DNA of 64,000 nucleotides, taken from Alphaproteobacteria bacterium. Lineage in GTDB: Bacteria; Myxococcota_A; UBA796; CAJQPC01. Shown in pieces: positions 4,748-8,549 of the stretch (its first letter is position 1; each line of letters starts with the position of its first letter). The position numbers were made by a program, and so were the translations under genes. The notes beneath the pieces are model-generated. The model saw only the letters and a program-made list of their open reading frames with translations. It was not told the DNA's origin and ran no database searches. The stretch covers positions 95,127 to 159,126 of the forward strand of contig JACKEV010000010.1 in the NCBI GenBank assembly GCA_020632795.1. Direction: 5' to 3'.

Positions 4748-5254
4748 GTGAACATGCACCTCACCCATCAACAAGAGGCCTTCAGCCGCGCTTACGTCCG
4801 CGCCGTCGCGGCCGCGGCCAGCTTCCGCGTGCAGCCCGGCGCCGCCCCCGACGATGACAGCGTCGACCTGACCATCGCGGCCCGCGGCCCCATGGGCACC
4901 GTGCGGTCGCCGAAGCTGGACGTTCAGCTCAAGTGCCGGCTCGGCTTTCCCGAGGGCTCGCCCACCTGGCCCTGTGATCTGGAGATGAAGAACTACGACG
5001 ATCTCCGTCCCACAGACGTCCAGGTGCCCCGGGTGCTTGTGGTCGTCGCGGTGCCCGAGGACGTCACACGCTGGGTGGAGCAGGACGAGCAGCGCCTGCT
5101 GATGCGCCACTGCGGGTGGTGGGTATCCCTGCGGGGGCTGCCCACCATCGACAACACAGCGACCCGGCGGGTGCAGATGCCCCGCAACCAGATCTTCGAC
5201 GTCGCCGGCCTTCAGGGCATCATGGACCGCGTCGGCCAGGGAGGCACGCCATGA
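4748..5254 (+). CDS. DUF4365-like protein (PD-(D/E)xK restriction-endonuclease-like fold)
   Basis: The N-terminus QQEAFSRAYVRAVAAAASFRV...DDDSVDLTI...KLDVQLKC matches the DUF4365 pattern (GE.yV...a...g......D.GiD..i......vQvK). Confidence 0.6.
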   Translation: MNMHLTHQQEAFSRAYVRAVAAAASFRVQPGAAPDDDSVDLTIAARGPMGTVRSPKLDVQLKCRLGFPEGSPTWPCDLEMKNYDDLRPTDVQVPRVLVVVAVPEDVTRWVEQDEQRLLMRHCGWWVSLRGLPTIDNTATRRVQMPRNQIFDVAGLQGIMDRVGQGGTP

Positions 5255-6396
5255 CGACCCTCACCGAGCAGCTCCGCGCGGTCGAGCCCCGGCAGGTGGC
5301 CGCCTGGCTGCGTACCCGCGGCTGGACCCTGGTCACGCCCGACCCCGAGCGTGTCGCCGTCTACGAGAAACCCACCGGGGACGAGGGACCCTTCGTCGTG
5401 GAGTTGCCGCTGGACCCCAGCTTCCGGGACTACACGCGGCGCATGGGCGAGGTGCTCCAGGTCCTCGTCGCGGCCAGCGGCCAGCCCGCCACATGGGTGC
5501 TCACCGAGCTGCGCGCCTCGACCTTCGATGTCGTGCGCCTGCGGGCGACAGGGCCGGGCGTCGGCGCGGGTCTGGTGCCCGTGGAGTTGGGCACGCGCCT
5601 GTTCTCGCTGACCCGGGAGCTGCTCCTGGCAGCCGCATGCGCGGCCCACGAGACCCGCCCGGTCTACCGCACCCGCAAGCCCGCGGAGGCCGTGGAGTTC
5701 CTCCGCCGCGTCAAGCTCGCCGCCCCCGAGGCCGGCAGCTTCATCGTGACCGTGCACGCGCCCGTGCCTCCGGTCCTGCAGACCACGCTGGCGGACGAGA
5801 CCGAGGAGCCGCCCTTCGAGCGGCGCTCCACGCTCATGCTCGCCCGCTCGGCCTCGGCCGCCCGGGAGGCCGCGCAGCGCGCCGGGCTCGGCGAGGGAGC
5901 AGACCCCTTTGTGAACGGCACCGCCCAAGGCATCAGCGCCAACCTGCTCGAGGCCCTCTCCGGCTTCGTGGATGGCCAGGACGCCACCGGCCTGGACCTG
6001 AGCTTTGCCTGGGCGTCCTCCAGACCTGCACCCGCTGGGACGCCCACCGCTCTGCACCTGGGCTCGGACCTCGCGCCGATCCTCCAGGAGGGCGCTCGGG
6101 TGCTGCGCGCGCGCGCCCCGCGCCCGGACTTCGAGCTGGAGGGCATCGTGGTGCGCCTGGACAGCGAGGCCCCGGACGCTGGGGGCCAGGTCGTCGTCAC
6201 CGGCCAGATCGACGGACAGCCGCGCAAGGTGAAGGTCCCCATGGGACCCGAGGACTACGCGCTGGCGCTGCGCGCCCACGAGGGCCAGCAGTTCCTCCGC
6301 TGCGAAGGGGAGCTGGTGCGTCAGGGTCGGCGCTATCATCTGGAGCGCGTTCGCCATGTGACCCTGCTTGACGACGACGGGGACACCGCAGACTGA
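5251..6396 (+). CDS. Hypothetical 381-aa protein, partner of the DUF4365-like gene
   Basis: ATG at 5251 overlaps the upstream TGA (ATGA). The coding-style ORF is long; no recognisable motif was found. Confidence 0.55.
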   Translation: MTTLTEQLRAVEPRQVAAWLRTRGWTLVTPDPERVAVYEKPTGDEGPFVVELPLDPSFRDYTRRMGEVLQVLVAASGQPATWVLTELRASTFDVVRLRATGPGVGAGLVPVELGTRLFSLTRELLLAAACAAHETRPVYRTRKPAEAVEFLRRVKLAAPEAGSFIVTVHAPVPPVLQTTLADETEEPPFERRSTLMLARSASAAREAAQRAGLGEGADPFVNGTAQGISANLLEALSGFVDGQDATGLDLSFAWASSRPAPAGTPTALHLGSDLAPILQEGARVLRARAPRPDFELEGIVVRLDSEAPDAGGQVVVTGQIDGQPRKVKVPMGPEDYALALRAHEGQQFLRCEGELVRQGRRYHLERVRHVTLLDDDGDTAD

Positions 6397-6491
6397 AACA
6401 CGGCGCTGACCTCCAACGGTCCGCCCCACCCCAGATTCTTTCAACAACCCTGACCCCTTGCGCTACGGTATGGCTCCCCCCGCCTCCCAGG

Positions 6492-8549
6492 ATGGAAGCC
6501 ATGCGCCTGCCCGCGTTCTGCCTGCTCCTCGCCCTCGCCGCCTGCAAGGACAAGCCCCCCATCGACGAGACCGGCGCCGACGGCCCGGTGGACGCCGACG
6601 GGGACGGCTTCGACACCGAGGTGGACTGCGACGACAGCGACGGGTCGGTCCACCCCGGCGCGACCGAGCAGCCCTACGACGGCGTCGACAACGACTGCGA
6701 CCCGGAGACGGTCGACGACGACCTCGACGGGGACGGCTTCGTCAGCGCCGAGGACTGTGACGACGCCGACGGCGCGGTGAACCCCGACGCCGCCGAGCGC
6801 TGCGACGGCGTCGACAACGACTGCGACGGCGAGATCGACGAGGGCGACGCCGAGGACGCCGGCACCTGGTACGCCGACGGGGACGCCGACGGCTACGGCG
6901 CCGACGAGAGCGCCATCACCGCCTGCGAGCAGCCCTCCGGCCACGTGGCCGCGGGCGGCGACTGCGACGACGCCGACGCGGCGTACAACCCCGCCGCCAC
7001 CGAGGACGACTGCACCGACCCCAACGACTACAACTGCGACGGCTCGGTGGGCTTCGCCGACGCCGACGGGGACGGCTGGGCGGCCTGCGAGGACTGCGAC
7101 GACGCCGACGCCGCCATCAGCCCCGACGCCACCGAGGTCTGCGACGCGGTCGACAACGACTGCGACGGCACCATCGACGAGCCCGACGCCGCCGACGCGC
7201 CCCTCTGGTACGCCGACACCGACGGCGACGGCTACGGCGACCCGGTCACCGGCCAGGCCGCCTGCGAGTCCCCCTCCGGCACCGTCGCCGACAGCAGCGA
7301 CTGCGACGACACCCACGACGACGTCTACCCCGGCGCGGCGGAGACCTGCGACGAGCTGGACGGCGACTGCGACGGCACCGTGGACGAGGGCGTGCAGCTC
7401 ACCTACTACCAGGACGCCGACGGCGACGGCTACGGCGACCCCGCCAGCACCACCCTGGCCTGCGACGTGCCCTCCGGCTACGCCGAGGCCGACGGGGACT
7501 GCGACGACGGCGCCGCTGCGGTCAACCCCGACGCCACCGAGGTCTGCGACGGCGTCGACAACGACTGCGACGGCACCACCGACCCCGCCTCCAGCGCCGA
7601 CGCCGCGACCTGGTACGCCGACACCGACAGCGACGGCTACGGCGACGCCAGCAGCGCCACGGTGAGCTGCACCCAGCCCGCCGCCACGGTCTCCGACAGC
7701 ACCGACTGCGACGACGGCGACGCCAGCGTGTTCCCCGGCGCCGACGAGTACTGCAACAGCGTCGACGACGACTGCGACGGCACCACCGACGAGGACGACG
7801 CCCTGGATGCGGTGAGCTGGTACGCCGACGGCGACAGCGACACCTACGGCGACGTGAACAGCCCCACGGTCGCCTGCACCCAGCCCTCCGGCTACGTCGG
7901 CGACGACAGCGACTGCGACGACAGCGACGCCAGCCTGGGCCCCTGCGCGAGCTGCCTGAACATCCTGGACGCCGGGCGCAGCACCGGGGACGGCGTCTAC
8001 AGCTTCGACCCCTGCAACACGGGCGTCGACAGCGACTACTACTGCGACATGACCACCGACGGCGGGGGCTGGACCTTGGCCGGCTGGCAGTCCGCCAGCG
8101 CCACGACCTACCTGGGCACCAACGACCGGGGCACGGTCGGGGACGCCTCGGACTGGTCGCGGGACCTCGCCTGCGTGGGCTACGCCGAGGTCATGGTCTT
8201 CAACCGGACCTACGGCGGCTCCTTCTCCCAGAGCTACACGCCGTCGACCTGGGCAGAGACCGGCACCAACCTGGCGATCGGCAGCGCCGGGACCGCCTTC
8301 AAGCACGGCACCTACGGGCCTTCGAACAGCCTGATCGTCATGGGCTGCGTGGACTACACCTACAACGGCGGGGTCTACCCCCAGTACGCCTGTGACAGCG
8401 ACAGCCAGCGCTCCGCGAAGGGCCACCTGGCCGACTACGCGGGCGAGTACTGCTCCGGCGGGCGCCTGGACCGCACCTGGGCGTGGTCGAACGGGTCGAG
8501 CTGCTCGTACCGGGGCACGGCCTACACCTGGGGCTTCGCCATCCGGTGA
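6492..8549 (+). CDS. Secreted lipoprotein: MopE-type Cys-rich metal-binding repeats plus a fibrinogen-C-terminal-like domain
   Basis: Signal peptide with lipobox LALAAC. More than 10 repeats of DxDGDGxxxxxDCDDxDxxxxPGAxExCDGVDNDCDG. The C-terminal CDMTTDGGGWTL is a fibrinogen-related-domain signature. Confidence 0.7.
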   Translation: MEAMRLPAFCLLLALAACKDKPPIDETGADGPVDADGDGFDTEVDCDDSDGSVHPGATEQPYDGVDNDCDPETVDDDLDGDGFVSAEDCDDADGAVNPDAAERCDGVDNDCDGEIDEGDAEDAGTWYADGDADGYGADESAITACEQPSGHVAAGGDCDDADAAYNPAATEDDCTDPNDYNCDGSVGFADADGDGWAACEDCDDADAAISPDATEVCDAVDNDCDGTIDEPDAADAPLWYADTDGDGYGDPVTGQAACESPSGTVADSSDCDDTHDDVYPGAAETCDELDGDCDGTVDEGVQLTYYQDADGDGYGDPASTTLACDVPSGYAEADGDCDDGAAAVNPDATEVCDGVDNDCDGTTDPASSADAATWYADTDSDGYGDASSATVSCTQPAATVSDSTDCDDGDASVFPGADEYCNSVDDDCDGTTDEDDALDAVSWYADGDSDTYGDVNSPTVACTQPSGYVGDDSDCDDSDASLGPCASCLNILDAGRSTGDGVYSFDPCNTGVDSDYYCDMTTDGGGWTLAGWQSASATTYLGTNDRGTVGDASDWSRDLACVGYAEVMVFNRTYGGSFSQSYTPSTWAETGTNLAIGSAGTAFKHGTYGPSNSLIVMGCVDYTYNGGVYPQYACDSDSQRSAKGHLADYAGEYCSGGRLDRTWAWSNGSSCSYRGTAYTWGFAIR

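Follow-up and report, generated by a model that had tools for sequence, protein, structure and literature searches.

The closest described counterpart of the locus analysed here is PDC-M02, a two-gene candidate that "guilt-by-embedding" predicted from genes lying within Type I R-M, BREX or DISARM loci and that a supplementary table records as CAS_00021 (cassette count 894; Payne et al., bioRxiv 10.1101/2024.01.29.577857). In the literature we found no experiment on PDC-M02, whose name occurs in the supplementary table only and in no main text; other PDC candidates have given negative phage assays. The literature mentioning DUF4365 likewise yielded no DUF4365 two-gene system. Nucleases of this kind have also been described in other settings. 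In SPARDA, an Argonaute system, DREN is the effector domain that degrades DNA non-specifically. EAT16, an eCIS-associated toxin that carries DUF4365 at its N-terminus, loses its cytotoxicity when the motif residues are mutated (PMC11297309). Divona, a validated anti-phage cassette of a Vibrio chromosomal integron, carries a DUF4365/Mrr-like nuclease region (bioRxiv 10.1101/2024.07.02.601686).

The window, i.e. the whole stretch of 64,000 nucleotides that was analysed, contains two adjacent genes, A and B, which the sequence identifies as one more ordinary, intact and solitary copy of the already catalogued candidate PDC-M02, and not as something new. The features of A and of its junction with B are as follows.

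4754 to 5254, forward strand: gene A, predicted stand-alone DUF4365/DREN-type PD-(D/E)xK nuclease (166 aa; PF14280, PDC-M02A)
4853 to 4867, forward strand: acidic half-motif of A, codons D34-D35-S36-V37-D38, the acidic part of the DUF4365 motif DxGxD...QxK
4925 to 4933, forward strand: catalytic half-motif QxK of A, codons Q58-L59-K60, with Q58 and K60 invariant
5239 to 5254, forward strand: A/B translational-coupling junction, with a GGGAGG Shine-Dalgarno sequence (5239-5244) still within A near its end, then ATGA (5251-5254)
5251 to 6396, forward strand: gene B, partner protein, PDC-M02B (381 aa), not assigned to any family of Pfam or NCBIfam

As in PDC-M02, A directly precedes B on the same strand, and the locus shows no structural difference from the candidate. 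Both proteins match the PDC-M02A and PDC-M02B models of PADLOC over their full length, which supports the original prediction of a candidate defence or toxin module at this site. In relatives we independently recovered the embedding in Type I R-M loci by which the candidate was defined; the window copy lacks such embedding and any defence neighbours.

Gene A can be read from a GTG as an open reading frame of 168 aa (4748-5254, forward strand); the NCBI call and the alignment of homologues favour the ATG at 4754, which gives 166 aa, so that the GTG at 4748 is the alternative start. The 168-aa protein had been said to fit the DUF4365 pattern, and it does: QQEAF, AYVRAVAAAASF, DDDSVDLTI and KLDVQLKC are all present, and the PF14280 (DUF4365) profile aligns from position 1 to 138 of 139 with residues 10-161 of A (E 6.2e-21), its 75.3 bits lying well above the gathering cut-off of 24.3 bits. 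A is furthermore matched by 25 PDC-M02A models, the best of which, PDLC04278, covers residues 1-166 with model positions 1-165 of 167 (E 6e-56). A thus matches both PF14280 and PADLOC, and B matches PADLOC only; the NCBIfam search returned no family for either protein.

The catalytic set of DREN nucleases is present in A (D34, D38, Q58 and K60), with S36 standing where the motif has G. The 36 aligned homologues show no variation at D33, D35, D38, Q58 and K60, and at least 90% of them keep D34. The acidic residues of A correspond to D41 of NbaSPARDA DREN and to D42/D46 of EAT16, while Q58/K60 correspond to Q60/K62 of NbaSPARDA DREN, Q62/K64 of TmuRE and Q66/K68 of EAT16; 20 residues separate D38 from Q58, and the same distance is 19-20 residues in NbaSPARDA DREN, TmuRE and EAT16. 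The exchange Q60A abolishes the activity of NbaSPARDA DREN. As in A, the DUF4365 domain of EAT16 bears the DxGxD...QxK motif, and the motif-dependent cytotoxicity of EAT16 supports, by analogy, the view of A as a toxic nuclease. EAT16 is, however, a secreted and injected two-domain toxin that has no B-like partner, whereas A and B form an intracellular two-gene cassette.

A predicted structure of A (AF2, pLDDT 89.7) provides the connection with SPARDA. The top 12 PDB matches of the model (Foldseek) are all SPARDA DREN-APAZ chains (9qcc, 9qbp, 9vx6, 9jt2, 9jsz), with E-values of 3e-6 to 1e-4, a probability of 1.0 and a TM-score relative to the query (TMq) of 0.54-0.61; they are followed by the archaeal Holliday-junction resolvase Hjc, EcoRV and I-Ssp6803I. 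As modelled, A has the DREN fold together with an intact catalytic motif. This link came from fold comparison only: sequence similarity between SPARDA DREN and A is too low for a PDB profile search, and PDB sequence searches gave nothing useful, whether the query was the A protein itself, a profile built on A or one built on B.

A shares with SPARDA the DUF4365/DREN effector domain and the catalytic D...QxK residues, and SPARDA, too, consists of two genes, its nuclease being silent until the partner senses an invader. The two systems differ in other respects. The APAZ fusion is absent from A, which measures 166 aa against about 390-420 aa for SPARDA effector chains; no Piwi or Argonaute family, as in the short pAgo (MID-PIWI) of SPARDA, was found in B or the scanned neighbours; and B resembles neither pAgo nor APAZ, its fold matching OB and HicA-like domains only.

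Gene B had been described as an open reading frame of 381 aa with no recognisable domain. This holds for NCBIfam and for Pfam, where no family exceeded the threshold (a DUF4288 match with E 0.021 and 15.6 bits, below the cut-off of 27, was dismissed), but not for PADLOC, in which 38 PDC-M02B models match; the best, PDLC04298, aligns residues 5-376 of B with model positions 8-377 of 380 (E 9.9e-116). The B family is large, comprising 6739 cluster representatives (50% identity) at E<=1e-3, and among the best 150 of these most are 368-401 aa long, three are longer, and none is a fused A-B protein. No solved structure matches the whole chain of the B model (AF2, pLDDT 92.6, pTM 0.82) in PDB fold comparison. 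The model resolves into three domains.

5251 to 5520, forward strand: N-terminal domain of B (aa 1-90), predicted alpha-beta-beta-beta-alpha of HicA/YcfA-like fold, strongly acidic
5521 to 6117, forward strand: middle domain of B (aa 91-289), helix-rich alpha/beta, with no structural match, bearing LAAAC, GS, PFER and GxSANLC motifs
6118 to 6375, forward strand: C-terminal domain of B (aa 290-375), predicted OB fold (beta1-3, helix, beta4-5)

The HicA Pfam model does not match the N-terminal domain, and a conserved catalytic His is absent from it. In the C-terminal domain, the model shows OB-fold topology with likeness to SSB, RPA and PriB, and the top match is SilF. OB folds bind metals, sugars and proteins too. 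The combination of OB and dsRBD-like folds suggests that B may bind nucleic acids, yet both domains are acidic, the OB domain having a median pI of 6.1 across the family and 5.6 in the window protein. Acidity characterises the family as a whole (median pI 5.7), and many nuclease inhibitors are acidic. A Cys-His active site (C130/C233/H343) was considered for B and dropped, as C130 and H343 are only about 90% conserved and the window protein carries L at the position of C233, which is 97%-conserved in the family. A natural mini-B of about 185 aa, found elsewhere, keeps the HicA-like and OB domains and has no middle domain. In Divona one gene encodes the nuclease fused to crr6 (PF08847), and, unlike A-B, there is no separate OB-fold partner.

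The two genes are tightly joined. As originally read from the letters, the stop of A overlaps the start of B in the ATGA at 5251-5254 (ATG at 5251-5253, TGA at 5252-5254), and of 69 intact pairs in other genomes 62 show the same 4-nt overlap, usually with a GGAG-type Shine-Dalgarno sequence. A lies directly upstream of B in 77 of the 80 species genomes found through B, the other three having B at a contig edge, so that the pairing, whose conservation had been proposed as a check, holds in 77 of 77 B-found loci with room for it; B directly followed A in all three look-ups begun from an A homologue. The pairwise-identity matrices of A and B are correlated (r 0.77; Mantel test, 0 of 999 permutations reaching the observed value), and no conserved third gene occurs among the neighbours. 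We conclude that the pairing is obligate, coupled and co-diverging. It spans many phyla, plasmids and prophages, and close relatives (83% identity) sit in unrelated genomic contexts.

The two-gene operon of A and B is horizontally mobile and is at times embedded in Type I R-M operons. The pair was found on 10 plasmids and, intact, on 6 viral contigs, and M. abscessus prophages carry it at their end; the majority of copies stand alone on chromosomes. SIR2-TPR and reverse-transcriptase genes stand beside it in loci L099-101. The most recurrent neighbours are HsdM and HsdR, and hsd genes flank the pair, or B, in relatives L001, L006, L032, L053, L081 and L082. An hsdM-(hsdS)-A-B-hsdR embedding occurs in L001, L006 and L053: in L001 hsdM, hsdS, A and B overlap, and in L006 and L053 hsdR comes right after B. 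The window copy does not lie in a defence island. In L082, finally, the order is hsdR-hsdM-hsdS-B: hsdS is full-length, its stop is translationally coupled to an intact B, and A is missing, with no remnant of it detectable by HMM, blastn or tblastn.

Such arrangements could mean that B, with or without A, is a Type I R-M accessory that acts physically with the Hsd proteins, e.g. by extending or regulating restriction. The coupling of B to hsdS in L082, the overlapping genes of L001, the position of hsdR in L006 and L053 and the recurrence of HsdM and HsdR all fit this idea. We nevertheless regard it as very unlikely, given that Hsd-like genes lie within 10 kb in only about 11 of 83 loci, that the window copy and most others have no Hsd genes, and that the A-less layout was seen once, in a metagenome-assembled genome (MAG).

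The way in which the pair decays bears on the relation between the two proteins. Among the loci found through B, 11-13 have an intact B with A broken or absent, and 2 have an intact A with B broken. Since loci chosen through B bias this count, it was repeated on a sample chosen through A, in which B carries a nonsense mutation or frameshift in 0 of 48 loci; four seemingly broken B genes in this sample were set aside as a genuine short isoform and not decay. Against the roughly 31% expected from gene length, the decay asymmetry has p ~1e-6, in a comparison that joins two differently chosen samples from different databases and small numbers. The frequent loss of A with B intact, the rarity of the reverse and the acidity of B suggest that B restrains A rather than assembles it, and lead us to predict toxicity of A on its own and neutralisation of A by B.

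We therefore propose, giving it an even chance of being correct, that in PDC-M02 B restrains the toxic nuclease A until infection, with an abortive or anti-element outcome. A would act as a stand-alone DREN-type nuclease, and B, made in step with A through the 4-nt overlap, would bind A and keep the nuclease harmless. An infection cue could then be sensed through the HicA-like N-terminal domain and the OB fold of B, upon which A would be released or activated. Freed A might degrade DNA indiscriminately, so that the infection would be aborted or the invading element destroyed.

The analogy with SPARDA counts against restraint by B, as it would make the partner an activator. A would then be an inert monomer, and B, upon sensing a nucleic acid or phage protein, would oligomerise and assemble active A tetramers. 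This agrees with the behaviour of isolated SPARDA DREN, which is monomeric and inactive and needs tetramers, with the modelled fold of A, which is closest to SPARDA DREN, and with the two predicted fold types of B, OB and dsRBD-like, which are typical of nucleic-acid binders and are exactly the domains retained in the natural mini-B. Set beside the decay data, which point to restraint and not to assembly of A, activation of this kind seems to us rather improbable.

Restraint of A by B need not imply a dedicated anti-phage role, and the pair could be a plain TA or addiction module in which A is a DNase toxin, B its labile or neutralising antitoxin, and the benefit lies in stabilising plasmids, prophages or islands. 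HicAB modules have a toxin-first gene order. A-B resembles them in this order, with A as the putative toxin, in the translational coupling and in the HicA/YcfA-like fold modelled for the N-terminal domain of B; the HicA fold, however, belongs to the toxin in HicAB and to the putative restraining partner in A-B, and the HicAB toxin is an mRNA interferase whereas A is a predicted DNase. Carriage on plasmids and prophages, the asymmetric decay, the cytotoxicity of one DUF4365 protein and the TA genes near the pair (PemK, which lies beside it in L096-98, DUF2442/DUF4160 and PIN) are likewise what an addiction module might show. On the other hand, the 381 aa of B far exceed the size of typical type II antitoxins, B contains no DNA-binding Pfam domain of the HTH, RHH or AbrB type, most copies are chromosomal and solitary, and defence is indicated by the repeated occurrence of the pair inside Type I R-M operons. 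We thus consider a purely addictive function unlikely; it partly overlaps the restraint model proposed above, as the boundary between TA and abortive infection is not sharp.

A housekeeping role in DNA repair or recombination would pair an Hjc-like resolvase or nuclease with an SSB-like OB-fold protein. The model of A does match Hjc, and the modelled C-terminal domain of B resembles SSB, RPA and PriB. Housekeeping homology of the partner, named beforehand as a possible refutation of a defence or toxin role, was found by neither Pfam, NCBIfam nor PDB profile search, and A, too, belongs to no housekeeping family of Pfam or NCBIfam. The patchy cross-phylum distribution, the missing synteny of close homologues, the presence of the pair on plasmids, in prophages and inside R-M operons, and the frequency of A pseudogenes make such a role extremely unlikely.

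A farther-reaching extension of the restraint model is that the B family represents an undescribed class of infection sensor which also restrains a nuclease and, with its HicA-like and OB core, makes a DREN nuclease an Argonaute-independent suicide DNase; B could also be wired to Type I R-M, as in L082. We offer this tentatively, as a possibility that we hold more probably wrong than right. If it were true, the defence family represented by PDC-M02 would be very widespread and new in its mechanism, and would link SPARDA effectors, TA logic and R-M. The candidate is among the commonest multi-gene candidates of the guilt-by-embedding screen (count 894; more than 6700 B clusters at 50% identity), and our data provide it with a testable hypothesis, namely that the DREN effector of SPARDA has been freed from Argonaute and joined to a three-domain partner. 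Confirmation would mean that at least two unrelated sensing modules have recruited the DREN effector, and would add a compact, widespread nuclease-based abortive-infection system.

The window copy itself lies among radical-SAM, MopE-repeat, GDSL lipase, Hsp70 and GatB genes, with no hsdR, hsdM or hsdS flanking the pair. Its solitary position among housekeeping-type genes and the L at the conserved C233 of its B protein are observations that count against the explanation proposed above. PADLOC matches of a neighbouring radical-SAM protein to pVip and of a neighbouring kinase-like protein to PD-T4-6 were rejected as partial, generic-domain hits. Signs of recent insertion were not seen: the pair has no GC anomaly, no meaningful direct or inverted repeats flanking it and no tRNA within 20 kb. 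No sigma-70-like promoter was seen for the pair, and two terminator-like matches were discounted, lying on the wrong strand and inside genes. The spacers, first given as about 160 and 95 bp, measure 158-164 bp on the upstream side (4590-4747/4753) and 95 bp on the downstream side (6397-6491). Of the neighbours, both taken at first for unrelated secreted-protein genes, the upstream one encodes a 428-aa protein with no Pfam match and the downstream one a MopE-repeat protein with a lipoprotein-like signal.

Two coupled reading frames make up the module:

4748-5254, forward strand, open reading frame of A
5251-6396, forward strand, open reading frame of B

The sequence confirms the predicted two-gene pair, in which the TGA of A shares bases with the ATG of B (ATGA at 5251-5254), and a Shine-Dalgarno motif (GGGAGG) lies within A, 6 nt 5' of the B start. 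The frame of A that opens at 4748, originally taken as a 168-aa protein, is real, but translation most likely begins from the ATG at 4754, giving 166 aa, because the NCBI product for an identical protein (166 aa) and the alignment of homologues begin at this same Met. The assignment of A to DUF4365 was borne out by a match to nearly the entire Pfam profile PF14280 (E 6.2e-21; 75.3 bits, cut-off 24.3 bits). B had been described as lacking any recognisable domain, which holds for Pfam and NCBIfam, where no family exceeded the threshold, but not for PADLOC-DB v2.0, where B matches PDC-M02B (best E 9.9e-116) and A matches PDC-M02A (best E 6e-56), both end to end. With both proteins hit in this proposed check, the cautiously worded idea of a candidate defence or toxin module proved correct. 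The description also holds for the two spacers (about 160 bp and 95 bp) and for the unrelated adjoining genes, with a 428-aa protein without Pfam match upstream and a MopE-repeat protein downstream.

Judging from its predicted fold and conserved motif residues, A is apparently a catalytically competent, stand-alone DREN-type nuclease. The best 12 PDB matches of its AlphaFold model (pLDDT 89.7) are DREN-APAZ effector chains of SPARDA (short prokaryotic Argonaute plus DREN-APAZ) filaments (9qcc, 9qbp, 9vx6, 9jt2, 9jsz), with E 3e-6 to 1e-4, probability 1.0 and a TM-score relative to the query of 0.54-0.61 over about 160 columns, followed by Hjc, EcoRV and I-Ssp6803I; sequence similarity to the SPARDA chains is too low for detection by phmmer and profile search. 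The DUF4365 motif DxGxD...QxK reads D34-x-S36-x-D38 ... Q58-x-K60 in A, and D38, Q58 and K60 do not vary among 36 homologues. Equivalent residues are D41/Q60/K62 in the DREN domain of NbaSPARDA, where D41A and Q60A abolish nuclease activity according to the literature, Q62/K64 in TmuRE, and D42/D46/Q66/K68 in the eCIS toxin EAT16, where three of these four, mutated singly, abolish cytotoxicity (PMC11297309). A and SPARDA thus have the effector domain in common, whereas both other defining features, the short Argonaute partner and the APAZ domain, are missing here: the locus uses the weapon of SPARDA, yet is not a member of it. It also differs from Divona (bioRxiv 10.1101/2024.07.02.601686) and EAT16 (PMC11297309), single proteins in which DUF4365 is fused to one or more other domains, in being split into two genes.

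A motif scan with one genome per species revealed relatives of B in 576 genomes, including Myxococcota, Planctomycetota, Acidobacteriota, Alpha- and Gammaproteobacteria, Chloroflexota, Verrucomicrobiota, Armatimonadota, Spirochaetota, Synergistota and others. The conserved pairing expected of a true module was evident: a DUF4365 frame lies immediately 5' of B on the same strand in 77 of 80 fetched loci, and in the remaining three B stands at a contig edge. The 4-nt overlap (ATGA or GTGA) is found in 62 of 69 intact pairs, and it also joins each of the three A homologues used as a starting point to a following gene of 376-385 aa that has no Pfam match. The matrix of pairwise identities for A correlates with that for B (r = 0.77; Mantel test, observed value reached in 0 of 999 permutations), and no conserved third gene was found among the neighbours of the pair.

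The B family is very large and uniform: 6739 cluster representatives (50% identity) reach E<=1e-3, and 2556 reach E<=1e-30. The best 150 representatives are mostly 368-401 aa long (three are longer). Between a HicA/YcfA-like N-domain (aa 1-90) and a C-terminal OB fold (aa 290-375), the middle domain (aa 91-289) gave no match. D93, A129, S163, R191, G227 and G353 are universally conserved in 211 diverse members, which also retain LAAAC, PFER and GxSANLC motifs, and conservation across these members discloses no recognisable catalytic signature. Residue 233 of the window protein (5947-5949), within the conserved GxSANLC helix, is Leu in place of the Cys found in 97% of members, and the protein further departs from consensus at positions that are 87-94% conserved (Y19W, W38Y, E76S, R78Q, D86E, G157A). 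HicAB systems place the toxin gene first; this order and the fold resemblance in the N-domain of B are the only common points. B is acidic (median pI 5.7; N-domain 4.9, OB domain 6.1), which weakens the idea of a simple nucleic-acid binder.

Natural short forms of B also occur. Four distinct low-GC metagenome loci encode a mini-B of about 185 aa (L128:920-1492, L151:3477-4031, L160:3480-4031, L172:3429-4043), which overlaps the end of an intact A in the usual way and joins the HicA-like N-domain straight to the OB fold, the entire 200-aa middle domain being gone. Since just these two domains are kept, they suggest themselves as the functional core of B. Several other homologues end near HMM position 316 and have only the first half of the OB fold; they may be products of decay or represent a second truncated isoform. 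One is preceded by an intact A (L163:2962-4014), and two on IMG/VR contigs have no A upstream (L087:1426-2430, L088:955-1959).

The anatomy of the pair would fit two modes of action, each by analogy. [quoted passage not shown] Gene decay bears on this choice. In loci chosen through B, A was broken or missing beside an intact B in 13 cases, 11 of them robust, A being lost to nonsense mutations, frameshifts or deletions and in one locus completely absent, and B was broken beside an intact A in two. Because such a sample under-represents broken B, 80 metagenome loci were fetched through A, 48 of them non-redundant and with enough room. Here 41 of 48 loci were intact, two near-identical ones had a nonsense mutation in A, none of the 48 had a nonsense mutation or frameshift in B, one B was short at its C-terminus and four were the genuine short isoform. 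Equal decay per bp would leave about 31% of B genes broken, against 0-1 of 46 observed (p about 1e-6); the proportions 11/82 and 1/46 differ with p = 0.03 (Fisher's test). This asymmetry is predicted if B restrains A and is the reverse of what a pure activator would produce, and is suggestive, as the samples come from different databases and counts are small. The acidity of B points in the same direction, and for both reasons we favour restraint. Under restraint by B, the two proteins would be produced in step and form a complex that keeps the nuclease silent; an infection cue acting on B might then release or activate A, which would cut DNA non-specifically and abort the infection.

The window copy is solitary, amid two radical-SAM genes, an unknown gene and genes for the MopE-repeat protein, a GDSL lipase, Hsp70 and GatB, which give only generic partial PADLOC matches, and the pair shows no GC anomaly, flanking repeat or tRNA. 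Its closest relative (B 83% identical) has a wholly different neighbourhood and adjoins an HsdM gene and an HsdS fragment. The commonest families among 118 neighbour ORFs (the two nearest per side in 31 loci) were N6_Mtase (5), HsdM_N (4), HsdR families (3), Eco57I (3), DDE_Tnp_1 (3) and IS66 (1) transposases, and PIN_3 (2). The pair is embedded in the order hsdM-(hsdS)-A-B-hsdR in three loci (L001, L006, L053), and a PemK toxin adjoins the pair in L096-98. JGI metagenome loci L099-L101 (1448-14564) carry a close relative of the pair (B 68% identical) in the gene order SIR2_2-TPR, RVT_1 reverse transcriptase, unknown genes, A-B, DUF932, PDDEXK_1, and this region resembles an integrative element or a defence island. 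In many further loci it is solitary amid housekeeping genes, in agreement with the remark of Payne et al. that candidates derived from embedding are less island-associated (bioRxiv 10.1101/2024.01.29.577857).

Mobile elements carry the pair as well: it is present on 10 plasmids from 8 genera and intact on 6 IMG/VR contigs, and PHROG families of unknown function exist for both proteins. In two Mycobacterium abscessus prophages it occupies the extreme left end as genes 1-2, adjoining a WXG-motif protein cassette, a position typical of carried defence or moron genes. This pair (L092:398-2160 in prophi102-2, MW584173.1; likewise in prophiGD54-1) is divergent (B 23% identical), retains the 4-nt overlap and is annotated as hypothetical for both genes. 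A Sandaracinaceae MAG (GCA_020633055.1, L082:3647-11137) has an hsdR-hsdM-hsdS-B operon, in which the start of an intact B (67% identical to window B) is translationally coupled with the stop of full-length hsdS through a 4-nt overlap; immediately upstream are HNH, SocA_Panacea and Fic genes, and A is untraceable in the locus by HMM, blastn and tblastn. B may be able to work with, or persist beside, Type I restriction-modification without the DREN nuclease.

PDC systems stem from Payne et al., whose supplementary table lists cassette CAS_00021 (FAM_01850>>FAM_00842; count 894) with the annotation 'Assign as candidate PDC-M02' (bioRxiv 10.1101/2024.01.29.577857). The name is absent from the main texts of the literature searched, the DUF4365 literature searched describes no two-gene system like A-B, and the papers searched that assayed other PDCs did not include PDC-M02, which is therefore known solely as a prediction. 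The window pair agrees with PDC-M02 on each testable feature and is a routine, solitary member of this catalogued, uncharacterised candidate family. New in this analysis is the structural tie, through modelling, between PDC-M02A and the DREN effector of SPARDA. New too are the division of PDC-M02B into three domains and the existence of natural short forms with two, evidence on how deep and tight the pairing is, an asymmetry in decay from which a toxic A and a protective B are predicted, and the hsdS-B arrangement without A.

Elsewhere in the window, the overlapping radical-SAM frames 731-1879 (SPASM domain) and 1753-2652 may be a peptide-maturation pair or one frameshifted gene within 731-2652; a weak PADLOC match of the former to pVip was dismissed as generic radical-SAM similarity. 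In the 685-aa protein at 6492-8549, a lipoprotein-like signal (LALAAC) is combined with six or more 'putative metal-binding motif' repeats (PF11617, E 3e-59), which are matched in the DNA by direct repeats of about 80 nt. The source MAG (contig of 760 kb, locus tag H6739_20605) is labelled 'Alphaproteobacteria bacterium' by NCBI; this label may be wrong, because the nearest relatives of A and B are in Myxococcota, Sandaracinaceae and Myxococcales MAGs and the window has 70% G+C and MopE-repeat and kinase-like genes.
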